This document shows, piece by piece, positions 3,202 through 63,012 of a stretch of 64,000 bases of DNA. Each line of letters starts with the position of its first letter. Positions within the stretch are counted from its first letter, which is position 1. Location: sequence record PZ452594.1. One strand, written 5' to 3'. Under the pieces are notes generated by a model. It made no database searches. It saw nothing but the letters and a program-made list of their open reading frames with translations, and was not told where the DNA came from. Source of the DNA: a phage. The position numbers and the translations under genes were made by a program.

Positions 3202-3231
3202 TTTGTTTTCCTCATTTGTTTTGGTAGAGCT

Positions 3232-3261
3232 ATAATATCACAACTCTACCGTAAAGTAAAC
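3232..3261 (-). promoter_or_regulatory. T4-type early promoter (GTTTAC-18-TATTAT)
   Basis: GTTTAC at 3256-3261 (minus), -10 at 3232-3237, just upstream of the 2965-3201 ORF. Confidence 0.5.
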
Positions 3262-3742: not shown

Positions 3743-4840
<1,098 letters not shown>

Positions 4841-5810: not shown

Positions 5811-6304
5811 AAAGTTTTAATAACCTCTATAATATCGTCTTGAGAAAGACCGTTAATTAAAATATGATGTTCAGCTGGAGATTTAGAAATTTTAAAGCAC
5901 GCCTCAACATCTTCTGCCATATCCGATGCACTACGATTTGGATTACTAATACCAAGGCGGTGTTTTCCCGTCAAAGGATTAACGATGATATAGCATTTGC
6001 AGCTATTGATATGAACATTGGGTTGAGTCTGATTAATGAACACTTCACAATCATACTTAGCGAGTTGATTTTCTAAAAAGACTTTCATCTCCTCAACCGC
6101 ATCAGGAAGCATATCACGGGCTTGCTCAAGACGACGATTTCGATATTCTTTAATGGTCGTTTTCCGCTTGACTTGCTTAGCTAAATCTTTCTTAAGATCG
6201 GTGATATATCCAACTCGACGATTTCCTTTGAATACAGAAATCCCATCTGTAGTATCACCGTATGCTTCAACGACCATTTCAGTAGTAATAAGCTGCAAAT
6301 CCAT
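5801..6304 (-). CDS. alc: Alc-like host transcription inhibitor
   Basis: 167 aa from second ATG; assigned from conserved position between the pseT cluster and rnlA and matching length. Confidence 0.55.
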   Translation of the reverse strand: MDLQLITTEMVVEAYGDTTDGISVFKGNRRVGYITDLKKDLAKQVKRKTTIKEYRNRRLEQARDMLPDAVEEMKVFLENQLAKYDCEVFINQTQPNVHINSCKCYIIVNPLTGKHRLGISNPNRSASDMAEDVEACFKISKSPAEHHILINGLSQDDIIEVIKTLCN

Positions 6305-6368: not shown

Positions 6369-7956
<1,588 letters not shown>

Positions 7957-15409: not shown

Positions 15410-15439
15410 ATAGTATCACACTACTACCCTTCTGTAAAC
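15410..15439 (-). promoter_or_regulatory. T4-type early promoter (GTTTAC-18-TACTAT)
   Basis: GTTTAC at 15434-15439, -10 at 15410-15415 (minus), upstream of the 15142-15384 ORF. Confidence 0.5.
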
Positions 15440-16119: not shown

Positions 16120-16149
16120 ATAGTACCATAGAAGGACAAGGATGTAAAC
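16120..16149 (-). promoter_or_regulatory. T4-type early promoter (GTTTAC-18-TACTAT)
   Basis: GTTTAC 16144-16149, -10 16120-16125 (minus); shares the conserved box ATAGTTGTATAGTACCA with other copies. Confidence 0.6.
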
Positions 16150-17130: not shown

Positions 17131-17200
17131 TTTTATTTCCTTTTTAATTTAATTAACAGTTGGTGCTATGACGATGTATGACCTCATAGCTGGTCAGTGA
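17131..17200 (-). promoter_or_regulatory. gene 32 autoregulatory translational operator (pseudoknot plus unstructured A/U-rich leader)
   Basis: Minus-strand leader GCTATGAGGTCATACATCGTCATAGCAC followed by AACTGTTAATTAAATTAAAAAGGAAATAAAAATG. Confidence 0.65.
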
Positions 17201-17213
17201 GATAATTATAATC

Positions 17214-17221
17214 TATTTATA
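17214..17221 (-). promoter_or_regulatory. late-promoter box TATAAATA upstream of gene 32
   Basis: Exact TATAAATA on minus strand. Confidence 0.45.
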
Positions 17222-17229
17222 ATAAGCAA

Positions 17230-19495: not shown

Positions 19496-22400
19496 ATGGC
19501 CGAGATTAAAAGAAAGTTCAGAGCAGAAGATGGTCTGGACGCAGGTGGTGATAAAATAATCAACGTAGCTTTAGCTGATCGTACCGTAGGAACTGACGGT
19601 GTTAACGTTGATTACTTAATTCAAGAAAACACAGTTCAACAATATGATCCAACTCGTGGATATTTAAAAGATTTTGTAATCATTTATGATAACCGCTTTT
19701 GGGCTGCTATAAATGATATTCCAAAACCGGCAGGAGCTTTTAATAGCGGACGCTGGAGAGCATTACGTACCGATGCTAACTGGATTACGGTTTCATCTGG
19801 TTCATATCAATTAAAATCCGGTGAAGCTATTTCGGTTAACACCGCAGCTGGAAATGACATCACGTTTACTTTACCATCTTCTCCAATTGATGGTGATACT
19901 ATCGTTCTCCAAGATATTGGAGGAAAACCTGGAGTTAACCAAGTTTTAATTGTAGCTCCAGTGCAAAGTATTGTAAACTTCAGAGGCGAGCAAGTACGTT
20001 CAGTACTAATGACTCATCCAAAGTCACAGTTAGTTTTAATTTTTAGTAATCGTCTGTGGCAAATGTATGTTGCTGATTATAGTAGAGAAGCTATAGTTGT
20101 AACACCAGCAAGTCTCTATCAGGCGCAATCTAATGATTTTATCGTACGTAGATTTACTTCTGCTGCACCAATTAATGTTAAACTTCCAAGATTTGCTAAT
20201 CATGGCGATATTATTAATTTCGTTGATTTAGATAAACTGAATCCACTTTATCATACAATTGTTACTACATACGATGAAACGACTTCAGTACAAGAAGTTG
20301 GAACTCATTCCATTGAAGGCCGTACATCGATTGACGGTTTCTTGATGTTTGATGATAATGAGAAATTGTGGAGATTGTTTGACGGGGATAGTAAAGCGCG
20401 TTTACGCATTATAACGACTAATTCTAATATTCGTCCAAACGAAGAAGTTATGGTATTTGGTGCGAATAACGGAACAACTCAAACAATTGAGCTTCAGCTT
20501 CCAACTAATATTTCTGTTGGTGATACTGTTAAAATTTCCATGAATTACATGAGAAAAGGACAAACAGTTAAAATCAAAGCTGCCGGTGAAGATAAAATTG
20601 CTTCTTCAGTTCAATTACTGCAATTCCCAAAACGCTCAGAATATCCGCCTGAAGCTGAATGGGTTACAGTCCAAGAATTAGTTTTTAACGGTGAAACTAA
20701 TTATGTACCAGTTTTAGAACTTGCTTATATTGAAGATTCTGATGGAAAATATTGGGTTGTACAGCAAAACGTTCCAACCGTAGAAAGAGTAGACTCTTTA
20801 AATGATTCTACTAGAGCAAGATTAGGCGTAATTGCTTTAGCTACACAAGCTCAAGCTAATGTCGATTTAGAAAATTCTCCACAAAAAGAATTAGCAATTA
20901 CTCCAGAAACATTAGCTAACCGTACTGCTACTGAAACTCGTAGAGGTATCGCAAGAATAGCAACTACTGCTCAAGTGAATCAGAACACCACATTCTCTTT
21001 TGCTGATGACCTTATCATCACTCCTAAAAAGCTGAATGAAAGAACTGCTACAGAAACTCGCAGAGGTGTCGCAGAAATTGCTACGCAGCAAGAAACTAAT
21101 ACAGGTACTGATGATACTACAATCATTACTCCTAAAAAGCTTCAAGCTCGTCAAGGTTCTGAATCATTATCTGGTATTGTAACTTTTGTATCTACGGCGG
21201 GTGCTACTCCAGCTTCTAGTCGTGAATTAAATGGTACAAATGTTTATAATAAAAACACTAATAACTTAGTTGTTTCACCTAAAGCCTTGGATCAGTATAA
21301 AGCTACTCCAACACAGCAAGGTGCAGTAATTTTAGCAGTTGAAAGTGAAGTAATTGCTGGACAAAGTCAGGAAGGATGGACAAATGCTGTTGTAACGCCA
21401 GAAACGTTACATAAAAAGACATCAACTGATGGAAGAATTGGTTTAATTGAAATTGCTACGCAAAGTGAAGTTAATACAGGAACTGATTATACTCGTGCAG
21501 TCACTCCTAAAACTTTAAATGACCGTAAAGCAACTGAAAGTTTAAGTGGTATAGCTGAAATTGCTACGCAAGTTGAATTCGACGCAGGCGTCGACGATAC
21601 TCGTATCTCTACACCATTAAAAATTAAAACCAGATTTAATAGTACTGATCGTACTTCTGTTGTTGCTCTATCTGGATTAGTTGAATCAGGAACTCTCTGG
21701 GACCATTATACACTTAATATTCTTGAAGCAAATGAGACACAGCGTGGTACACTTCGTATAGCTACACAAGTTGAAGCTGCTGCAGGAACATTAGATAATG
21801 TTTTAATAACTCCTAAAAAGCTTTTAGGTACTAAATCTACTGAAGCACAGGAAGGTGTTATTAAAGTTGCAACCCAGTCTGAAACTGTGACTGGAACGTC
21901 AGCGAACACTGCTGTATCTCCAAAAAATTTAAAATGGATTGTGCAGAGTGAACCTACTTGGGCAGCTACTACTGCGATAAGAGGTTTTGTTAAAACTTCA
22001 TCTGGTTCAATTACATTCGTTGGTAATGATACAGTCGGTTCGACCCAAGATTTAGAACTGTATGAGAAAAATAGCTATGCGGTATCACCATATGAATTAA
22101 ACCGTGTATTAGCAAATTATTTGCCGTTAAAAGCAAAAGCTGCTGATACAAATTTATTGGATGGTCTAGATTCATCTCAGTTCATTCGTAGGGATATTGC
22201 ACAGACGGTTAATGGTTCACTAACCTTAACCCAACAAACGAATCTGAGTGCCCCTCTTGTATCATCTAGTACTGCTACGTTTGGTGGTTCAGTTTCGGCA
22301 AATAGTACATTAACTATTTCTAATACTGGAACGACTTCTTCTCGATTTACATTTGAGAAAGGTCCTGCTTCTGGTAGTAATGCTGATTCTGCATTGTATG

Positions 22401-32661: not shown

Positions 32662-33297
32662 TCACAGTTCAGATGCTACAGTGATTACAGCTTCAATGTT
32701 TTCTGCTGAGCGTTTAATGTCAAGATACACATTACCGTTTTTAGCGATTTTACATGACATTCCGATGTCAGTAAATTTCTGAATATGATGTTCCATCATT
32801 TTGTATCCAAAAATTCGCATATTTCCATTATTGTTAATTTCAAAATTGCGAATTCCATGAGTACGTTTTTCTAAAATAGCAAGATAATTACTACGATAAG
32901 TTTCAACCTTTTTAAGAACAAATCCATTTTCATCTAAAAGTTTTAACATGAGGTCTTTATCTTCTTCCATATCGGAAGTAATCTCGCGAGCTTTACGAGT
33001 TGCTCGTTTTTTCAGTAGTTCCGGAGCATTTTCCTGTGCGTATAAAGTTGCTGCGTTTGAAATAATATCCTGAGCTTCACCTGTAATGATTAATCCATCA
33101 CCAGATTTCTCCACCAGGCCTTTTTTAATCAATACCCCAATATTACTATTAACTACTGCGTTACCTAAATCTGGATGCACCTCACGAACTTCTGCAGCTG
33201 TAATGAAATCTTTCTTAGCAATAGTAATTAAAATCGCAGCAGTTTTTTCATTCAGAACATCGTTAGAAGTTTTGATGATGTAAGTTACTTTAGACAT
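32662..33297 (-). CDS. motA: MotA middle-transcription activator
   Basis: 211-aa ORF matching T4 MotA in length and position. Confidence 0.9.
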   Translation of the reverse strand: MSKVTYIIKTSNDVLNEKTAAILITIAKKDFITAAEVREVHPDLGNAVVNSNIGVLIKKGLVEKSGDGLIITGEAQDIISNAATLYAQENAPELLKKRATRKAREITSDMEEDKDLMLKLLDENGFVLKKVETYRSNYLAILEKRTHGIRNFEINNNGNMRIFGYKMMEHHIQKFTDIGMSCKIAKNGNVYLDIKRSAENIEAVITVASEL

Positions 33298-33338
33298 TTT
33301 CTAATCTCCGTAATTCTGTATCAGTAGTTGATAGTTGT

Positions 33339-33368
33339 ATAGTACCACAGTATGCTTTGGTTGTAAAC
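33339..33368 (-). promoter_or_regulatory. T4-type early promoter (GTTTAC-18-TACTAT) upstream of motA
   Basis: GTTTAC 33363-33368, -10 33339-33344, AT-rich UP region; conserved box GTAGTTGATAGTTGTATAGTACCAC. Confidence 0.65.
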
Positions 33369-33391
33369 CGTTTTGTGAAAAAAATTTAAAA

Positions 33392-33418
33392 TAAAAAAGG
33401 GAGAGCCTCGGCTCTCCC
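33392..33418 (-). terminator. intrinsic terminator
   Basis: Hairpin GGGAGAGCC / GAG / GCTCTCCC followed by U-run on the minus-strand RNA. Confidence 0.6.
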
Positions 33419-33423
33419 TAAAA

Positions 33424-36447: not shown

Positions 36448-36475
36448 TTTCTGTTCCTCCGTAGTTGATAGGGTA

Positions 36476-36505
36476 ATAGTACTACGGAGGAACAGTCTTG
36501 TAAAC
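36476..36505 (-). promoter_or_regulatory. T4-type early promoter (GTTTAC-18-TACTAT)
   Basis: GTTTAC 36500-36505, -10 36476-36481; 14-bp inverted repeat CTGTTCCTCCGTAG / CTACGGAGGAACAG flanks the -10. Confidence 0.55.
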
Positions 36506-36754
36506 AACTTTTTTAAAAATATTCGTAATAAATGTGAATACCAATCACTACTGCCGAAACCTGTGCAACCCACCACGCACAAGCAATAAGTACAGAATTC
36601 AAAATTTTCATAATAACCTCATCACAAAAGTAAATGTTAAACAAATTACTGGAATACTAATTAACCAAACAAAACACCACCATAATGAACTCATAGTTCA
36701 ATCTCAGCGATTTTCATTTTATTCTCCAAATCTGTATCAGTAGTTGATAGTTGT

Positions 36755-36784
36755 ATAGTACCACGGTCCTTGTGGTATGTAAAC
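36755..36784 (-). promoter_or_regulatory. T4-type early promoter (GTTTAC-18-TACTAT)
   Basis: GTTTAC 36779-36784, -10 36755-36760; conserved box as at 33339 and 62983. Confidence 0.6.
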
Positions 36785-41010: not shown

Positions 41011-41040
41011 ATTATACCACATCCTTGTGGTAAAGTAAAC
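41011..41040 (-). promoter_or_regulatory. T4-type early promoter (GTTTAC-18-TATAAT)
   Basis: GTTTAC 41035-41040 and TATAAT 41011-41016; spacer contains the inverted repeat CCACA...TGTGG. Confidence 0.6.
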
Positions 41041-42860
41041 TACTGGCTCATCCATTCTTTGCGAAGGTCAGCATTATCTCCCATGAGCATTTCAAAAAGC
41101 TCTTTCCAGTTCTCAGGAAGTTTAACAACATCATATACTGGGTTTTGAATCATCTCACGATATTCAGATTTTTCTAAAGAGCCAAGTCCCTTAATATAAC
41201 GGATGCTATGTTTAGGTAGAGCATCTTTAGCACTCTCATATTCAGCGACTGTATAAAACCATTCTTGTTTTTTACCGACCTGAGCGATGATTACAGGAGT
41301 TTTGACAAAGCGAATTCTTCCTTGTTCAAACAGTTCTGGCCAATTACTAAAAAATCCGAGCAGAGAAGGATAAATGCTTCCTAGACCATCATGGTCAGCA
41401 TCAGTCATAATAGCAATATTATGATAATTCAAGTTTTCAGCTTTTTCACCGAGAACTAGACCAGTGATTGCGCAAATATCAAATAGTTCTTTGTTTTTAA
41501 GCATATCTGCATAAGACATACCCCAACTGTTGAGAACTTTACCACGTAATGGATAACCACCATGAAGTTCTTTATCACGAACATCAATAAGATATCCGAT
41601 AGCAGAATCACCCTCAGTCAAGAAAAGAGTAGTGTCAGCATCTTTACCACAAAGATTCGCTTTGATATGTTTATGAACCTTAGCTTTAGAAGCCTTTTTA
41701 GCTGCTTTAGTTTCTGCTGCTTTTTCTGCCGCCAATTTACGAGCCAAAGCAGCTTCGATAATCGGCATTAGAATTGCTTCATTATTTAGAATAGCACGTG
41801 AAATCTTTTTAGCATCAAGCTGAATATGACTACGGATTTCACCAAATGGAGAAGTCAAACGCTCTTTAGTTTGAGAATCAAATCGCATGTTTTTCATATC
41901 ACGAACAAACATAACGATAGTCAAACATTCTTTGACACGCGCTTTAGTCACATCAATTTTGAACTTACGTTTGATTTGTGGAATAAGGTCTTCACAAATA
42001 TCATCCATAACACAGTCAATGTGATGGCCACCATTCTTAGTGTGGATGTTATTCACATAAGTTAATTGACGAAATCCATCCGGTGAACGACCAACCGCAA
42101 TAGAACAATTTTCTTGTTCTTGAACGATAGCATGCTCATCATATTGGCGTGCATATTTCTTAAAATTGCCCTGAACCTTTTTACCATTAAAGGTAAATTG
42201 AATATCAGGATAAACAACAGCAAGTGTCTGGAGACGATCTAGTGTAATGTCAAGATAAACTTGGGACAGCTCATTAGTTTCAAATGACATAAAATCAGGA
42301 ATGAAAGTAACACGAGTTCCTTTCCATTTTCCTGGAATAGTTTCCCATGATTTATTTTCCATGCCATTTGAACAACGAACTACAATATTATTTTGACCAT
42401 CGCCAGTTTCACCGACAAACATCACAGAAAAAATGTTAGTTAAACTAGAACCAACACCATTCATACCACCGGTGACACGTTCTTTATCATCACCAAAGTT
42501 ACCACCCGCTTTTGGAATAGTCCAAGCAGCAACTGGACCAGGAATTTCTTCACCGGTAGGTGTTTTAACCATCGCTTGTGGAATACCACGACCGTTATCT
42601 TCAACTGTTACTTGATTGTTTTTGATGGTAACATTAATTTTATTCGCGAATTTAAACTTAGTACGAATACCTTCATCTACTGAGTTATCGATAATTTCAT
42701 CAATAAGCTTAACAAGACCAGGTACATACTGAACACTTTCCCATTTACCAAACAGAAAGCGCTCATGCATTTCATTAGCAGAAGAGCCAATGTACATGCC
42801 ACTACGCTTTTTGATATGTTCAATATCGCTCAGAATTTTAATTTCATTCTTAATCATCAC
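41040..42860 (-). CDS. 39: topoisomerase II large subunit (GyrB-like), single unsplit ORF
   Basis: 606-aa continuous ORF; GHKL ATPase N-terminus and TOPRIM-like region (LTEGDSA). Confidence 0.92.
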   Translation of the reverse strand: MMIKNEIKILSDIEHIKKRSGMYIGSSANEMHERFLFGKWESVQYVPGLVKLIDEIIDNSVDEGIRTKFKFANKINVTIKNNQVTVEDNGRGIPQAMVKTPTGEEIPGPVAAWTIPKAGGNFGDDKERVTGGMNGVGSSLTNIFSVMFVGETGDGQNNIVVRCSNGMENKSWETIPGKWKGTRVTFIPDFMSFETNELSQVYLDITLDRLQTLAVVYPDIQFTFNGKKVQGNFKKYARQYDEHAIVQEQENCSIAVGRSPDGFRQLTYVNNIHTKNGGHHIDCVMDDICEDLIPQIKRKFKIDVTKARVKECLTIVMFVRDMKNMRFDSQTKERLTSPFGEIRSHIQLDAKKISRAILNNEAILMPIIEAALARKLAAEKAAETKAAKKASKAKVHKHIKANLCGKDADTTLFLTEGDSAIGYLIDVRDKELHGGYPLRGKVLNSWGMSYADMLKNKELFDICAITGLVLGEKAENLNYHNIAIMTDADHDGLGSIYPSLLGFFSNWPELFEQGRIRFVKTPVIIAQVGKKQEWFYTVAEYESAKDALPKHSIRYIKGLGSLEKSEYREMIQNPVYDVVKLPENWKELFEMLMGDNADLRKEWMSQ

Positions 42861-44165: not shown

Positions 44166-44413
44166 TAATAAATTTCCTTCCAGTAAGTTGTGCCATCTTC
44201 AGTAATTTCACGAAATACACCGTAAATTGGTTGTTTATCACCAACCTTTTCATACACATAAACCGAAGTCAAGTGAGTAAACTTGATGGTGTGTTCCTTT
44301 TGAACTACTACCAAATCTGGATCGAATAATACATCTTCAAATTCGTCATTAGTGCAATTCTGAACAATTTTACGTTTCATTACAATTTCCTCATTAATTG
44401 AACAGTGGAGCAA
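44165..44413 (-). CDS. hypothetical protein
   Basis: 82-aa ORF. Confidence 0.45.
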
Positions 44414-44675
44414 TGCGTTTCAGAAGAGTAGTAGCACCTTTGGCGAATTTTACATCATGAAAAACAGTTTCTTCTTCTGTAACAACTCGAACTTTAATAT
44501 TTTCACAATCCCAATTTTTACGAGCAATCTTCAAAAGCTGCAGTAAATCTTTACATTCAGCAATATCGATAACACATCCACGAGAATCTTCCATTATCGC
44601 ACGATAACCGTAAGCCATACCATAATCGTTGAAAGATTGCTCGATGATAATTAAGTTTTCCATTTTATTCTCCAA
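44394..44675 (-). CDS. hypothetical protein
   Basis: 93-aa ORF. Confidence 0.45.
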   Translation of the reverse strand: MENKMENLIIIEQSFNDYGMAYGYRAIMEDSRGCVIDIAECKDLLQLLKIARKNWDCENIKVRVVTEEETVFHDVKFAKGATTLLKRIAPLFN

Positions 44676-44760
44676 GTTGTTTTCTGTATCAGTAGTTGAT
44701 ATTGATATAGTACCATAATCAACTACTGATGTATATAGTTTTATGAAAAAATTTTAAACT

Positions 44761-45252: not shown

Positions 45253-45296
45253 AATTATCTCTCACTTGTTAAAAAGATTTTATACTCCGCAGGACC

Positions 45297-45326
45297 ATTA
45301 TACTCTGGTCCCAAGAGTTTGTAAAC
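45297..45326 (-). promoter_or_regulatory. T4-type early promoter (GTTTAC-18-TATAAT)
   Basis: GTTTAC 45321-45326, TATAAT 45297-45302; inverted repeat GGACCA...TGGTCC around the -10. Confidence 0.6.
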
Positions 45327-45835: not shown

Positions 45836-46348
45836 TTAATCTAAGGTAATAAAGCCTTTTAATTCGGCATGCGATTTGCGAAACATTACTTGATGCCCAC
45901 CAATGATAACTTGATCATCTGGCACTTCATAAATCGCAATGTACATTCCACGATCTTTTAAGTCTTCACGCTCTTCTCGAGTAAACCATCTCATTATATC
46001 ATATTCACTAGCGAAAGCAAAATGATATAATGCAATAAACCACAATGGAATATAATTTTCAATTCGTGAATAATCTTTATTCCATTTAGTTTTAATAGCA
46101 TCATTAGCATTTTCAACTAATAACTTATCATCGTGTGGAATAGGAATACTTTCATGACTTTCATAATCATTGCTATGATGATGAAATGATGATGAATTAA
46201 TACCGCAAAATTTTAGCCAAGTTCGAGTTTTCATAGAATCAAATCCACGATAAGGAGTTGATTGAACACATAACTCTTGCCTAATTTTCATTATACCACT
46301 ATCATCATTTAATGCGCTAAACGATGATTCAACACGATAAATTTTCAT
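45836..46348 (-). CDS. hypothetical protein
   Basis: 170 aa from internal ATG with SD GAGGATAATAAA; the track start lies inside the promoter. Confidence 0.45.
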   Translation of the reverse strand: MKIYRVESSFSALNDDSGIMKIRQELCVQSTPYRGFDSMKTRTWLKFCGINSSSFHHHSNDYESHESIPIPHDDKLLVENANDAIKTKWNKDYSRIENYIPLWFIALYHFAFASEYDIMRWFTREEREDLKDRGMYIAIYEVPDDQVIIGGHQVMFRKSHAELKGFITLD

Positions 46349-53678: not shown

Positions 53679-53708
53679 ATTATACCATACTCATTTTGGA
53701 AAGTAAAC
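53679..53708 (-). promoter_or_regulatory. T4-type early promoter (GTTTAC-18-TATAAT)
   Basis: GTTTAC 53703-53708, TATAAT 53679-53684. Confidence 0.55.
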
Positions 53709-53717
53709 CATTTAAAT

Positions 53718-53743
53718 GAAAAAAGGACTCCCGAAGGAGTCCT
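53718..53743 (-). terminator. intrinsic terminator after soc
   Basis: Hairpin GGACTCC / CGAA / GGAGTCC plus U-run; identical to the hairpin at 273-292. Confidence 0.6.
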
Positions 53744-54024: not shown

Positions 54025-54032
54025 TATTTATA
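54025..54032 (-). promoter_or_regulatory. late promoter TATAAATA for soc
   Basis: Exact TATAAATA (minus) about 30 nt upstream of the soc ATG. Confidence 0.6.
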
Positions 54033-54077
54033 ATAAATTCTCGCGGCTTTTAAGTCGTCGTTTATTTAAACGAGCTA

Positions 54078-54596
54078 TTAATAGCCTCGGTCTTGACGAG
54101 CGAAATTTTCAGCATTTTTCAGATAATAAAGTTTAAATATTTCTTCAGCTGACATTCCAAGAGCAATAAATTTATTCATGAAAAAGTGAAATTGGTCAAT
54201 CAGTTCAAATTTAATTTCAAGCTGATCTTCAGGAGATAAGTCTTGAATTTTCTTGGATTGCATTTCAGAATAACGTTTCTTCCAAGGTTTCCATACGGCA
54301 GAAGCTTCTTTTTCACCATTACTCATACCACCAAGAGAAGTATATAGCTCGCGAGTTTCATCTGCGATATAATCGTCTTGGTTTCGCAACCAAGCAAGAA
54401 CTTCTCCTGCAGTTTCAAGTGAATCAGGATGACGATTTGTTTCTGGTTTATCATTAGCCAAACGAATCTGTAAATGCCGCTGCATATCAAGCATAACCTG
54501 CAGTGGGTCAATATTGTGCATAATATTCTCAGCATATGCACGATTTGCTTTATCAACACCTTCGATCAAATGAGCGCATTCATTAAAGTAAGCCAT
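54078..54596 (-). CDS. 56: dCTPase / dUTPase (gene 56, MazG-like)
   Basis: 172 aa from internal ATG with SD AGGAAAATA; track N-terminal extension rejected. Confidence 0.8.
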   Translation of the reverse strand: MAYFNECAHLIEGVDKANRAYAENIMHNIDPLQVMLDMQRHLQIRLANDKPETNRHPDSLETAGEVLAWLRNQDDYIADETRELYTSLGGMSNGEKEASAVWKPWKKRYSEMQSKKIQDLSPEDQLEIKFELIDQFHFFMNKFIALGMSAEEIFKLYYLKNAENFARQDRGY

Positions 54597-54868: not shown

Positions 54869-55893
54869 ATCTTAGCATATTTAGATAGCCGCATTTTAGC
54901 CATCAACCCCTGGGCAATATTATTTTTCATATATTCCATAATTTGTTCAGGGGTTGCACCTTCCTTTCTAATCATATCATTAACATCTTTTGATTTCCAG
55001 GGAGATTTATCCCAAAACATAACCCTTTCTCCTGCATCAACTAATTTAGTCATTCGCTTAATAGTGTCAGGATGACGAGGTTCATTATCTAAAACCCACA
55101 CTCGTCTATCTTTAAATGGAACAACTTCTAGGTCTAATTGACCACCCGTAATAGCTATACCATTTTCAATAAAAAGTGAATCTATAGGTCCTTCTAGAAC
55201 ATATACATCACCATCTTTAACTCGTTCGACTCCATAGATTTTTGTTGCTTCAGGATAAGCTTTGATGGTGATATATTTTTGGGGAGCATCTTTCTTTAAT
55301 GCACGTCCTTGAAAAGACTCAGCTTTTCCATTAGCATTATAAATTGGAATAACAAGACGAGGCTCAGGTATTTCCTTTTTATATGTTCCCGGTGCTATGC
55401 TATTAACTAATTTAGGCCATTCAGTTGTAAACCAAAGATATTTCCATTTATCCTTTGGAATACAACGAGCTTTTATATATTTTATAATTGCATGGTCTTC
55501 CGCCAGTTTATCTAATCTAACACATGACGGAAGAGATTTAATTATTTTCTTCTCAGGTTGTTTAGGAAGTTCTTTAGGTTTTTCTACTGGACGACTTTTA
55601 CCTTTTTCTTTTCTTATTTCAAAGATATACTCACGATATAAATCGGGTTCAAACTCCTTTAAATATATTCCGATTGGCGCATGATAGTTGCAGTTATAAC
55701 AATGAATATTTCCTTCATTATTATCACCATAATACCATCCACGGGCTTTATTTTGATCGGTTTTTGAATCTCCACAAACAGGACATCTAAACCGTAATTT
55801 AAAAGTTGAACTATTATTTACTTGCGCGAATTTAGGTAAATGAGCCAATGCACGGTATGCAAACTCATTATCAATCCAAGGTATTGATGACAT
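54865..55893 (-). CDS. 61: gp61 DNA primase
   Basis: 342 aa; N-terminal zinc ribbon (CPVCGDS...CYNC) and TOPRIM-like region. Confidence 0.93.
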   Translation of the reverse strand: MSSIPWIDNEFAYRALAHLPKFAQVNNSSTFKLRFRCPVCGDSKTDQNKARGWYYGDNNEGNIHCYNCNYHAPIGIYLKEFEPDLYREYIFEIRKEKGKSRPVEKPKELPKQPEKKIIKSLPSCVRLDKLAEDHAIIKYIKARCIPKDKWKYLWFTTEWPKLVNSIAPGTYKKEIPEPRLVIPIYNANGKAESFQGRALKKDAPQKYITIKAYPEATKIYGVERVKDGDVYVLEGPIDSLFIENGIAITGGQLDLEVVPFKDRRVWVLDNEPRHPDTIKRMTKLVDAGERVMFWDKSPWKSKDVNDMIRKEGATPEQIMEYMKNNIAQGLMAKMRLSKYAKI

Positions 55894-62702: not shown

Positions 62703-62954
62703 TTAAAACTTAACAAATAACTTTAAAGCATCTTCAATTTTAATTCCTTTTCTTACACCCATAACAGAAATTGGCTGTGACTGAAATTTTCCTTTACCAT
62801 TATAAATTTCTAATCCAGTCACCATTCCATTTTGTTCTATAATACCGTAAGTGTTACCTTCATTTTCAAATTCTTTAACTTTAAAGAGTTTATTAGCTTT
62901 TTCTGCGTTAACAACTTTTAAATTTTGAATAAAATTAGTTTGAATATTTTTCAT
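62703..62954 (-). CDS. hypothetical protein
   Basis: 83-aa ORF with SD GGAGGAACACAAA. Confidence 0.5.
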   Translation of the reverse strand: MKNIQTNFIQNLKVVNAEKANKLFKVKEFENEGNTYGIIEQNGMVTGLEIYNGKGKFQSQPISVMGVRKGIKIEDALKLFVKF

Positions 62955-62982
62955 TTTGTGTTCCTCCGTAGTTGATAGTTGT

Positions 62983-63012
62983 ATAGTACCACAGAGGAAC
63001 AGTCTTGTAAAC
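62983..63012 (-). promoter_or_regulatory. T4-type early promoter (GTTTAC-18-TACTAT)
   Basis: GTTTAC 63007-63012, -10 62983-62988; conserved box CGTAGTTGATAGTTGTATAGTACCACAG. Confidence 0.6.

Follow-up and report, generated by a model that had tools for sequence, protein, structure and literature searches.

The element at 33325-33380 on the minus strand corresponds in sequence to the early promoter of motA, and it is very probably a host-polymerase (sigma-70) early promoter of the TACTAT/ACAACTATCAACTAC (or TACCCTATCAA) subclass, carried on a shuffled cassette of the PeSL (promoter-early stem-loop) type. The conserved box that distinguishes it is confirmed as real, but it is ordinary: it marks strong early promoters of T4-like phages, which have already been described as dispersed promoter/stem-loop cassettes. 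The earlier note had proposed an early-promoter family with a shared leader element or repeated cassette recombination. The reading as a family is correct and recombination is supported; a structured leader is not, and the published description of such elements (PMC4122927, PMC2839356, PMC2988021) had not been recognised.

The window, by which we mean the whole 64,000-nucleotide stretch analysed, is a segment of a Tequatrovirus (T4-like) genome, collinear with T4 130,070→168,903→1→28,068 and 96-98% identical to Tequatroviruses. From the -35 through the start codon, the motA promoter is identical in the window and in T4, where it lies at position 163673 upstream of motA, and its activity as a promoter is predicted from orthology to T4. 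In the record of the Yersinia phage fPS-2 the orthologous element is labelled 'terminator' plus 'predicted early promoter'. T4 makes MotA early in infection, and RegB cuts the T4 motA mRNA inside its Shine-Dalgarno sequence (PMC2988021).

Read 5' to 3', the locus has first an intrinsic terminator, then an A/T-rich UP element and GTTTAC; a spacer of 18 nt with TGTGG separates GTTTAC from TACTAT, and the box, GGAG and ATG follow (Table 1). Within 33325-33380 itself, GTTTAC (33368-33363) and the 18-nt spacer lead to TACTAT (33344-33339) and then to ACAACTATCAACTAC. The predicted terminator closes the upstream transcription unit directly before the motA promoter, and the A/T-rich stretch that follows it contains TTTTTTCACAAAACG. 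Apart from its TGTGG end, the spacer is the hypervariable segment of the cassette, with variable columns between conserved flanks. The +1 is predicted, from spacing only, to be the A at 33332, about 7 nt beyond TACTAT; the A of CTATC likewise gives predicted starts at 36748, 62976 and 36469, among others. The hallmarks of a T4-type early promoter are thus present, namely GTTTAC-N18-TACTAT (33368-33339), TGn and an A/T-rich UP element, and the promoter is co-oriented with and upstream of an early gene and orthologous to a T4 early promoter.

Table 1. Predicted elements of the motA promoter and of other early promoters in the window; hairpin energies and z-scores are from predicted folds.
Feature	Position	Strand	Detail
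motA coding sequence	32662..33297	-	211 aa; driven by box promoter; 100% matches to MotA
Shine-Dalgarno GGAG of motA	33306..33309	-	sequence
25-nt box GTGGTACTATACAACTATCAACTAC	33324..33348	-	extended -10, -10, discriminator ACAA, start-site core CTATC, first ~9 transcribed nt
-10 TACTAT	33339..33344	-	diagnostic of box-bearing subclass
18-nt spacer AACCAAAGCATACTGTGG	33345..33362	-	3' end TGTGG = extended -10 (TGn)
-35 GTTTAC of motA early promoter	33363..33368	-	equivalent to TTTACA plus 17-bp spacer
A/T-rich UP-element region TTTTATTTTAAATTTTTTTCACAAAACG	33369..33397	-	conserved across TACTAT-class copies
Intrinsic terminator AGGGAGAGCCGAGGCTCTCCCT + T-run	33398..33419	-	9-pair stem, 6 GC, -17.6 kcal/mol; labelled 'terminator' in fPS-2
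ndd.6 promoter, exact box	36740..36784	-	-35 36784-36779, -10 36760-36755; spacer-internal hairpin CCACAAGGACCGTGG
83-aa ORF promoter, exact box	62959..63012	-	-35 63012-63007, -10 62988-62983; hairpin arms 63001-62988 / 62972-62959, Shine-Dalgarno GGAGG in 3' arm, -20.2 kcal/mol, z -4.5
83-aa ORF	62703..62954	-	between box promoter and imm.1; in window, absent from T4
ndd.4 promoter, TACCCTATCAA box variant	36451..36505	-	-10 36481-36476; near-perfect inverted repeat, arms 36495-36481 / 36465-36451, buries Shine-Dalgarno GGAGG, -25.7 kcal/mol, z -7.3
Promoter of cef-upstream ORF, diverged box 21/25	44688..44736	-	degenerate -35 ATATAC; -10 44712-44707; spacer is reverse complement of box 3' part, arms 44730-44712 / 44706-44688, -20.2 kcal/mol, z -4.9
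frd.3 promoter, box 20/25	16120..16149	-	shares TACTATACAACTATC; terminator precedes
Promoter upstream of frd.1, TACCCTATCAA box variant	15410..15439	-	sequence
cd.2 early promoter, without box	3205..3261	-	-10 TATTAT 3237-3232; -10-flanking inverted repeat, -18.2 kcal/mol, z -4.5
rIIA.1 early promoter (TATAAT)	41011..41040	-	inverted repeat ACCACAAGGATGTGGT inside spacer
motB early promoter (TATAAT, 45302-45297)	45284..45326	-	arms 45318-45307 / 45296-45284; -21.5 kcal/mol, z -3.5

Exactly three perfect copies of the 25-mer are found in the window (33324-33348, 36740-36764 and 62968-62992, all on the minus strand), compared with none in 100 dinucleotide shuffles. Diverged copies are present at 16120 (frd.3, 20/25), at 36476 (ndd.4, the TACCCTATCAA variant, 20/25) and at 44707 (upstream of cef, 21/25), and a repeat family of 77 nt has five copies. 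The six box positions listed in the earlier note are all correct, each marking the low end of a -10 hexamer, and all six promoters do carry the box, although only half of them exactly. Five also share GTTTAC, as had been claimed for the whole set, the exception being the copy at 44707. Identical -35/-10 spacing is seen in 18/18 intergenic GTTTAC promoters on the minus strand, the copy at 44736 having ATATAC instead. Every box copy is followed by a Shine-Dalgarno sequence and ATG within 27-49 nt of the -10, and the genes driven by box-bearing promoters are unrelated (motA, ndd.6, imm.1, frd.3 and others). The spacer of the frd.3 promoter is unlike that of its T4 orthologue and resembles that of another T4 promoter (70696). 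A generic sigma-70 consensus scan is uninformative in so A/T-rich a window, giving 63 sites where 71 are expected from shuffled sequence.

The box is specific to one class of early promoter. Of the 19 early promoters in the window, 7 are of the TACTAT type, as are 14 of the 36 in T4, and the downstream box sequence is common to every one of them and to them only. Among T4 early promoters, the information content of the 19 nt that follow the -10 is 15.7 bits in the TACTAT class as against 4.1 bits in the rest, so that the box is conserved well beyond the general level of T4 early promoters, as the earlier note had supposed. Upstream of the -35 the corresponding values are 16.8 and 7.0 bits. Cassette matches occur at 3,984 places in 580 phage records of the annotated phage collection, or ~7 per genome; this collection supplied the family-wide counts in place of an exact-box search of IMG/VR viral contigs (only 12 stretches on about 5 contigs) and a MotB.2-based locus search (only 4 loci), both of which returned too little for statistics on the whole family. 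Only Tequatrovirus has the exact box; it is absent from the promoters that Mosigvirus and Dhakavirus have at the same genes. More distant relatives have lineage-specific boxes of their own; those with MotA at 66-69% carry TACCTCATACCAAACAAA, at promoters that vary from genome to genome. The start-site core CTATC(AA) occurs both beyond the TACTAT subclass and beyond the genus.

Comparisons between close relatives place the ends of genetic exchanges at these cassettes. The upstream junction of the 83-aa ORF insertion, present in the window relative to T4, lies exactly at the end of the box. At the frd.1 locus, a 23-codon mini-ORF follows the box in T4 and is missing from the window, and this indel also ends exactly at the box. 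The motA promoter cassette differs among phages whose MotA proteins are 100% identical, and one phage has a chimeric promoter with the crossover inside the box core CTATCAA. These two indels, the motA cassette replacement and the chimera support the repeated cassette recombination proposed earlier, as do the swap of the frd.3 spacer between paralogous promoter types and the shifting positions of TACCTCATACCAAACAAA in the more distant relatives; the count of indel junctions at TACTAT cassettes, taken between the window and T4 only, is borderline (2 observed against 0.38 expected, P about 0.06). As in PeSLs, end points of indels and replacements between close relatives fall at the cassette motif, the early promoter is combined with a stable stem-loop able in principle to terminate or attenuate transcription from upstream, and the motif carries a Shine-Dalgarno sequence and start codon at its 3' end. 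The copies at 36476 and 36755 are the two that flank the ndd.4/.5 exchange described for PeSLs in PST/T4 (PMC4122927). PeSL mini-circles have also been described (PMC2839356), with outward-facing PCR applied to RB49/phi1; in the window the tandem copies at 36784 and 36505, which lie 279 bp apart, are candidates for releasing such circles. Recombination in T4 uses microhomologies of 6-10 bp (PMC9391042).

The cassette measures ~75-100 bp. It runs from the UP element through GTTTAC, a hypervariable spacer, TGG-TACTAT and the box into a short leader without structure, and on to the Shine-Dalgarno sequence and the start codon. Promoter function probably maintains part of its conservation, in the UP element, the -35, TGn, the -10 and the CTATC core, the last being shared more widely among T-even early promoters, and copying and homogenisation best account for the rest of the box. 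As dispersed direct repeats on one strand, the cassettes could recombine with one another by gene conversion, deletion, insertion and replacement, and hence be alike within a lineage and different between lineages; we infer that recombination is the homogenising force. Small early genes would then be acquired, lost or given new promoters at these cassettes, in line with the modular shuffling already published for PeSLs.

Selection on the box sequence itself, for promoter escape or as a protein-binding site, could add to the identity among copies.

The box might instead be a DNA site, acting either on RNA polymerase as a discriminator and initial-transcribed sequence or as an operator for a phage factor in early shut-off. 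Such a site, spanning -15 to about +9, would lie in the range over which polymerase and operators act; in the polymerase version, it would be tuned for open-complex stability, escape or sigma-dependent pausing, and it does reiterate ACTAT / ACTAT / ACTAC. The extra consensus regions of T4 early promoters have no explained role, and the mechanism of early shut-off is likewise unexplained (PMC2988021). The occurrence of the CTATC(AA) core outside both the subclass and the genus is also in keeping with a DNA site. However, only some early promoters have the full box, and those that do drive unrelated genes; moreover, orthologous motA promoters without it work in close relatives with identical MotA. 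The presence of a different box in each lineage is better explained by drift plus homogenisation than by a conserved binding site, and we consider it unlikely that a DNA site accounts for the box.

Inverted repeats around the -10 constitute a second and separate layer, found in all early-promoter types, in which the spacer is complementary to the stretch that immediately follows the -10. They are commoner than the several cases picked out earlier. Hairpins with z < -2.5 and the -10 in or beside the loop are predicted for 12 of the 19 intergenic early promoters in the window. Among the three examples first given, the repeats at 3232 and 45297 do flank the -10, but that at 41011 sits within the spacer. 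No hairpin flanks the -10 in the motA or ndd.6 copy, and the box and hairpin layers are therefore not obligatorily linked. Complementarity between spacers and leaders exceeds that of every permutation of spacers against leaders (0/20,000), both in the window and in T4, with a duplex energy of -12.1 kcal/mol for own pairings and -7.9 kcal/mol for cross pairings. Across 126 unique promoters, energies of -13 kcal/mol or below are reached by 29% of own pairings and by 5.4% of cross pairings.

The predicted hairpins cover the Shine-Dalgarno sequence in 7 of the 12 strong cases (30.8, alc, ndd.4, the 83-aa ORF, motB.2, modB and, partly, mrh.2) and leave it outside in cd.2, frd.1, the cef-upstream ORF, motB and dmd; gating of translation thus cannot be their sole role. 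At motB.2 the predicted pairing of the Shine-Dalgarno sequence is conserved across genera: Tequatro-, Dhaka- and Mosigviruses, the divergent ESCO47 among them, all retain the hairpin, with different arm sequences (CATG/CATG, CTGGTT/AACCAG and CTAG/CTAG). In an Enterobacter phage a promoter hairpin also folds, but its 5' arm overlaps the -10. RNAalifold finds only two compensatory pairs among the motB.2 orthologues and a slightly unfavourable covariation term, MAFFT having set the Tequatrovirus arm one position off register, and the per-sequence folds are the better evidence here. The sense strand is the more stable in 22 of 28 locus groups (null expectation 54%, p = 0.008). Co-variation across genera and this strand preference suggest that the hairpins form in read-through RNA and often bury the Shine-Dalgarno sequence.

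A hairpin that tolerated G.T pairs in the sense strand of DNA would produce the same bias as RNA.

Terminators lie directly upstream of 4 of the 19 window promoters (motA, frd.3, 30.8 and mrh.2). The idea that a hairpin substitutes for such a terminator was rejected: hairpins are found at 1/6 promoters with an upstream terminator and 13/30 others in T4, and at 1/4 and 8/15 in the window, a trend in that direction that is not significant (Fisher p = 0.37 and 0.58).

According to these folding models, a transcript reading through from upstream would form the hairpin with the -10 in its loop and, in about half of the cases, with the Shine-Dalgarno sequence in its 3' arm. Since the predicted +1 falls beyond the 5' arm, on its 3' side, a transcript begun at the gene's own promoter would lack that arm and have a free leader, with a predicted energy of about 0. 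An RNA-level role for the hairpins is what such folds point to. That the -10-flanking repeats act generally as an 'own-promoter-only' gate on the small early genes of T-even phages is a possibility that we put forward tentatively and would not presume correct; the specific complementarity, the G.U bias on the sense strand and the co-variation at motB.2 in three genera speak for it. The spacer, usually taken as sequence-neutral, would here be selected in RNA to pair with the leader or the Shine-Dalgarno sequence. Read-through from the many upstream early and middle promoters would be translationally silent at that gene, attenuated or capped by a protective hairpin, and only transcripts that its own early promoter initiates would be open. 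If this is true, translation of each cassette would be tied to its own promoter, hence to early shut-off, and the cassettes would be insulated in expression and thus freely movable.

The -10 inverted repeats could, alternatively, act in DNA, as cruciforms or single-strand hairpins promoting recombination, for instance as substrates of endonuclease VII, or be simple by-products of template switching at quasi-palindromes. They do coincide with recombination-prone cassettes, DNA hairpins also tolerate G.T wobble, and the authors of the PeSL work speculated that the stems serve DNA binding or recombination (PMC2839356). A cruciform would use both strands equally, whereas the locus groups favour the sense strand by 22 to 6, and mismatched stems with loops of 5-15 nt extrude poorly. 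The Shine-Dalgarno sequence falls repeatedly in the 3' arm, and at motB.2 the arms co-vary around a fixed Shine-Dalgarno sequence, which argues for constraint at the level of mRNA. A role in DNA is accordingly judged improbable.

In a further proposal the box is a functional leader RNA, a 5' structure or a site for a protein or RNase, that controls the stability or translation of a set of early mRNAs. Conservation does continue past the +1 for about 10-20 nt, AUCAACUACUGAU could pair into a 4-bp stem right at the 5' terminus, and early mRNAs are controlled by RegB and RNase E (PMC3014915). The own-transcript leaders of the four ACAACTATCAACTAC-box copies (motA, ndd.6, the cef-upstream ORF and the 83-aa ORF), however, fold at just 0 to -2.5 kcal/mol and are essentially unstructured. 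The small AUCA...UGAU stem is not conserved among box copies, being lost where the box itself is kept, in the 83-aa ORF copy (...CAACTACGGAGG) and in T4 at 55384, with a 3-nt deletion. A scan of the whole window with Rfam covariance models at the gathering threshold gave no matches. Conservation is equally strong upstream of the +1, in DNA that is not transcribed, and in Mosigvirus and Dhakavirus the promoters at these genes lack the exact box. Read as a structured RNA, the shared leader suggested earlier is rejected, on its near-zero folds and non-conserved mini-stem, and a leader RNA of any kind is very improbable as the explanation of the box. Chance similarity of intergenic DNA in a genome of about 65% A+T, to which the sigma-70 scan might seem to point, is refuted by the exact 25-mers, the five-copy 77-nt family, the permutations of arm complementarity and the orthologues in 580 phage records, and is practically excluded.

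The finding mainly confirms textbook T4 biology, in which very strong early promoters are present as repeated cassettes. These cassettes double as recombination linkers, by which T4-like phages swap small accessory genes, often with anti-defence functions, and leave regulation intact. For annotation, the box together with GTTTAC-N18-TAnnnT pinpoints 19 early transcription units in the window and flags accessory ORFs borne on cassettes, such as the 83-aa ORF before imm.1. What forward value the finding has lies in the quantitative evidence that the spacer co-evolves with the downstream leader on the sense strand, which predicts translational or attenuation gating of read-through transcripts.

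The early promoters (Pe) of T4 are of an 'uber' sigma-70 type with UP, -35 GTTTAC, TGn and -10 elements (PMC2988021), known from the work of Liebig & Rüger 1989 and Miller et al. 2003 as cited in PMC9391042 and PMC2988021, and early-promoter logos are available for T4 relatives (PMC1524935). The window promoters share this architecture, with GTTTAC at -36 to -31, a 17 bp spacer, TG before the -10 and A/T-rich sequence upstream; the motA sequence is identical, and all window copies lie on the early-gene strand before early genes. There is no essential difference from T4 Pe. What is added to that picture is that conservation downstream of the -10 is bimodal, between TACTAT promoters and the rest, and that the exact box is genus-specific.

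The likeness to PeSLs (Arbiol et al. 2010, PMC2839356; Comeau et al. 2014, PMC4122927) extends to the combination of a terminator or stem-loop with an early promoter, Shine-Dalgarno sequence and start codon, and to dispersal in plastic regions, before small ORFs and at indel or replacement junctions between close relatives. The consensus of the PST PeSLs, TTTACW-N17-TAYWAT, fits the window copies (PMC4122927). The PST stems are drawn just upstream of the promoter, whereas many of those in the window span the -10, with the spacer paired to the leader, a placement known from RB49/phi1. The window stems are also A/T-rich with G.U pairs, unlike the Gn...Cn of PeSL.

Placement of a promoter inside a hairpin that gates translation is established for T4 e, soc, 49 and I-TevI (PMC3014915). 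As there, long upstream transcripts in the window could bury the Shine-Dalgarno sequence in a helix, and the gene's own transcript, without the 5' arm, would be open. In the literature examined, such gating has been demonstrated for late and middle promoters only, those of e, soc, 49 and I-TevI, where it delays expression; in the window the embedded promoter is early, the effect is predicted, and about half of the hairpins reach the Shine-Dalgarno sequence. With an early promoter embedded rather than a late or middle one, the rule would amount to translation of each gene solely from the early promoter that belongs to it.

We know of no dedicated recombinase or att-type site for T4-like promoter cassettes; general T4 homologous or microhomology recombination is assumed for those in the window, and in this they would differ from Botstein-Campbell linkers and integron-like cassette arrays. 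What they share with both of these systems (as discussed in PMC2839356) is the use of short conserved intergenic crossover points at which an incoming gene stays correctly expressed.

The early promoter studied here is predicted to drive motA, the gene directly downstream on the minus strand, and its parts are listed in the table below; Nolan et al. position GTTTAC at −36 to −31 (PMC1524935). The 3 kb around it are 97–98% identical to many Tequatroviruses (wV7, PST, UAB_60), and the best records for a 25-kb stretch of the window reach ∼96.7%. BLAST against the T4 reference identifies T4 130,070→168,903→1→28,068 as the collinear counterpart of the window, the gaps being the T4 sites of introns and homing-endonuclease genes. 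The nrdB and td introns (I-TevIII, I-TevI), segG and segF, all present in T4, are missing from the window, as is the T4 gene 60/mobA insertion, by which the large subunit of the topoisomerase is split.

Elements of the motA promoter and breaks in collinearity with T4
Feature	Position	Strand or source
Terminator AGGGAGAGCCGAGGCTCTCCCT and T-run	33419-33398	minus
A/T-rich tract TTTTTTTCACAAAACG	between terminator and GTTTAC	minus
GTTTAC	33368-33363	minus
18-nt spacer, 3' end TGTGG	between GTTTAC and TACTAT	minus
TACTAT	33344-33339	minus
ACAACTATCAACTAC TGATACAGAATTAC	directly after TACTAT	minus
GGAG	33309-33306	minus
motA ATG	33297	minus
HSP breaks vs T4 (introns, seg genes, gene 60/mobA)	8486/8489, 12987/12988, 17193-17229, 41375-41440, 54032-54078	BLAST

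A 25-nt box, running from the extended −10 through TACTAT to the first ∼9 nucleotides of the predicted transcript, is repeated in the window. Perfect copies lie at 33324–33348, 36740–36764 and 62968–62992, no perfect copy occurs in 100 dinucleotide-preserving shuffles, and a repeat finder independently returned a 77-nt family of five members. Six copies had been listed in an earlier note; three are these exact ones, and the other three have diverged (20–21 of 25 positions identical). The pattern GTTTAC-N18-TAnnnT occurs at 18 intergenic sites; without exception they lie on the minus strand and have a spacer of exactly 18 nt. Together with the diverged copy upstream of cef, whose −35 element is degenerate (ATATAC), they make up 19 early promoters, each preceding the orthologue of a T4 early gene. 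A perfect minus-strand GTTTAC-N18-TACAAT also lies antisense inside the tail-fibre gene 34 (19949–19978); it is kept in T4 (151291), with no Shine-Dalgarno sequence and ATG evident downstream. At 230–292 and 53681–53743, preceding 30.8 and mrh.2, an early promoter comes after one and the same terminator stem (AAAAAAGGACTCCCGAAGGAGTCCT, plus strand), so that the terminator-promoter composite is itself a repeat.

The box exceeds the general T4 early-promoter consensus. All window promoters with TACTAT as −10 (motA, ndd.6, 83-aa ORF/imm.1, the cef-upstream copy, frd.3, ndd.4 and the frd.1 copy) share a downstream sequence, whereas those with TATAAT, TATTAT or TATAGT have nothing in common there; identities downstream of the −10 are 13–19 of 19 within the core group and 2–10 of 19 among the others. 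T4 has exact copies at motA, ndd.6 and promoter 53943, and two more with one mismatch. T4 has 36 early promoters as defined by the pattern, 14 of them with TACTAT. Over the 19 nt that follow the −10 these 14 have an information content of 15.7 bits and the other 22 one of 4.1 bits; upstream of the −35 the values are 16.8 and 7.0 bits. The box therefore stands against the view that it is no more conserved than T4 early promoters generally. In the cassette alignment 12–15 nt of the mid-spacer are hypervariable, with conserved flanks on both sides.

A shared structured leader, one of two explanations offered originally, is rejected. Transcripts folded from the predicted +1 are essentially unstructured (motA −2.5, ndd.6 −0.6, cef-upstream ORF −0.6 and 83-aa ORF 0.0 kcal/mol), the 4-bp AUCA/UGAU stem is missing from copies that retain the box, and a search of Rfam gave no matches. 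A minor reading is that the box may act at the sequence level, through polymerase kinetics or factor binding. The earlier observation, the promoter family and the cassette recombination hold, but the leader RNA element is wrong or unsupported.

The inverted repeats reported near the −10 are real. When sequences spanning the −35 and the start codon are folded, 12 of the 19 promoters form hairpins of −14 to −26 kcal/mol (z < −2.5), with the −10 in or beside the loop and, in seven, the Shine-Dalgarno sequence in the 3' arm. The repeat at 41011 is present, but lies inside the spacer and not around the −10. The box promoters of motA and ndd.6 have no −10-flanking hairpin, and we conclude that box and hairpins are separate layers.

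Pairing between spacer and leader was assessed from the duplex energy of each spacer with its own 45-nt leader, relative to all cross pairings. Own pairs average −12.1 compared with −7.9 kcal/mol in the window, and −11.8 compared with −7.5 kcal/mol in T4; in neither set is the observed mean reached by any of 20,000 permutations. Over 126 unique promoters from the window, T4, part of RB69 and IMG/VR loci, duplexes of −13 kcal/mol or below form in 29% of own and 5.4% of cross pairings. Of 50 cases, 40 have the sense strand as the more stable one, as do 22 of 28 locus groups taken as approximately independent (p = 0.008 against a composition-matched null of 54%), placing the mismatches as G.U pairs on the mRNA-sense strand; in the ndd.4 stem, all three substitutions between window and T4 turn Watson-Crick into G.U pairs. 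The motB.2 promoter hairpin, predicted to bury the Shine-Dalgarno sequence, is kept in Tequatroviruses, Dhakaviruses and Mosigviruses (the divergent ESCO47 among them), with orthologue folds of −19 to −28 kcal/mol. Its distal arms co-vary (CGGTTAGT/GCTACTG, CATG/CATG, CTGGTT/AACCAG, CTAG/CTAG), and despite a register problem RNAalifold counts double compensatory changes at two pairs. In an Enterobacter phage a promoter hairpin also folds, with its 5' arm over the −10.

Recombination between promoter cassettes, the other explanation, is supported at nucleotide level. In contig L021, one gene upstream of the motA cassette, a promoter is identical to the window motA promoter up to ...ACAACTATCAA and continues with the leader of the other type, ATAAATGAACTGAA; this chimera is a crossover inside the shared core. 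An 83-aa ORF (62703–62954, minus strand; MKNIQTNFIQ...) lies between a box promoter and imm.1, where T4 has no gene, and its insertion junction falls exactly after ...ACAACTATCAACTAC. The T4 imm.1 leader is almost identical to that of ndd.6, and in the T4 imm.1 spacer the arm that pairs with the lost leader persists in decayed form; the 83-aa ORF leader itself resembles that of T4 promoter 53943. At the frd.1 promoter, TACTATTACCCTATCAA is followed in T4, but not in the window (15399), by a hydrophobic mini-ORF of 23 codons (MFAPYIMAAVMLVCLYLLIKAC; T4 ∼146011–146082) that is absent from the T4 annotation table consulted. At frd.3 the spacers of window and T4 differ, each matching a different paralogous promoter. 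Direct evidence of recombination comes from these junctions and from the chimera, despite a borderline junction excess in TACTAT cassettes (P ∼0.06, one genome pair, window vs T4). Since T4 recombines efficiently at microhomologies of 6–10 bp (PMC9391042), repeats of 25–77 bp are ample substrates.

Downstream of the degenerate box promoter, a 93-aa ORF (44394–44675, minus strand) is intact in the window and internally deleted in T4 (6482–6560), where a short remnant precedes cef. MotB.2 (45836–46348) is only ∼65% identical to the T4 protein and 94% to that of T6, and its upstream promoter and hairpin match T4 at every base but one, in the −10 (TATTAT vs TACTAT); here again a mosaic junction coincides with a promoter cassette.

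An 86-nt motA-cassette query matches 3,984 places in 580 phage records, typically 6–9 per genome and almost all in Tequatroviruses of Escherichia, Shigella and Yersinia; the annotation of Yersinia phage fPS-2 labels the orthologous stretch 'terminator' and 'predicted early promoter'. To judge from deeper relatives, the exact box is lineage-specific. In the early promoters of RB69 all that is kept is a short start-site core, (C/T)TATC(AA), four nt after the −10, and phages with MotA 66–69% identical have another recurring box, TAyTAT-TACCTCATACCAAACAAA, which some genomes carry at the motA promoter and others at a promoter next to it. Three contigs, L018 and L019 (MotA 100% identical to that of the window) and L021 (99%), have a completely different motA cassette, GTTTAC-ttctgctttaaacatga-TACTAT-agacctatcaaataaatgaactgaaac-GGAG. 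The motA-promoter spacers of L018 (∼5944–5950), L019, L021 and L022–L028 contain a MotA-box-like TGCTTTA or GCTTCAA, absent from the T4/window cassette and only ∼7 nt from the −10, compared with ∼12 in middle promoters. Because it is kept down to 51% MotA identity, MotA could regulate its own gene through it.

The promoter cassette is a feature already known from T4-type phages. Arbiol et al. defined the PeSL as an early promoter with a stem-loop whose stem may be placed between the boxes, over the −10, or else upstream or downstream. They demonstrated that PeSLs terminate and promote transcription, showed indels at them as well as mini-circles, and noted analogues based on T4 early promoters at internal-protein loci, citing Repoila 1994 (PMC2839356). 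Comeau et al. carried this picture to PST/T4, with the consensus TTTACW-N17-TAYWAT and an ndd.4/.5 exchange between two PeSLs as an example (PMC4122927); that pair corresponds to the copies at 36476 and 36755. Since this literature covers PST/T4, both the feature and its recombination reading are already published, for phages ∼97% identical to the window. Modestly new is the evidence, quantitative and strand-specific, for co-evolution between the spacers of early promoters and the leader downstream.

The hairpins share the geometry of T4 e, soc, 49 and I-TevI, in which the ribosome-binding site is buried in long transcripts and open in the embedded promoter's own transcript (PMC3014915). We infer that they would act in RNA read through from upstream, by silencing translation and/or by attenuation and protection of 3' ends; unlike in those four genes, the embedded promoter here is an early one.
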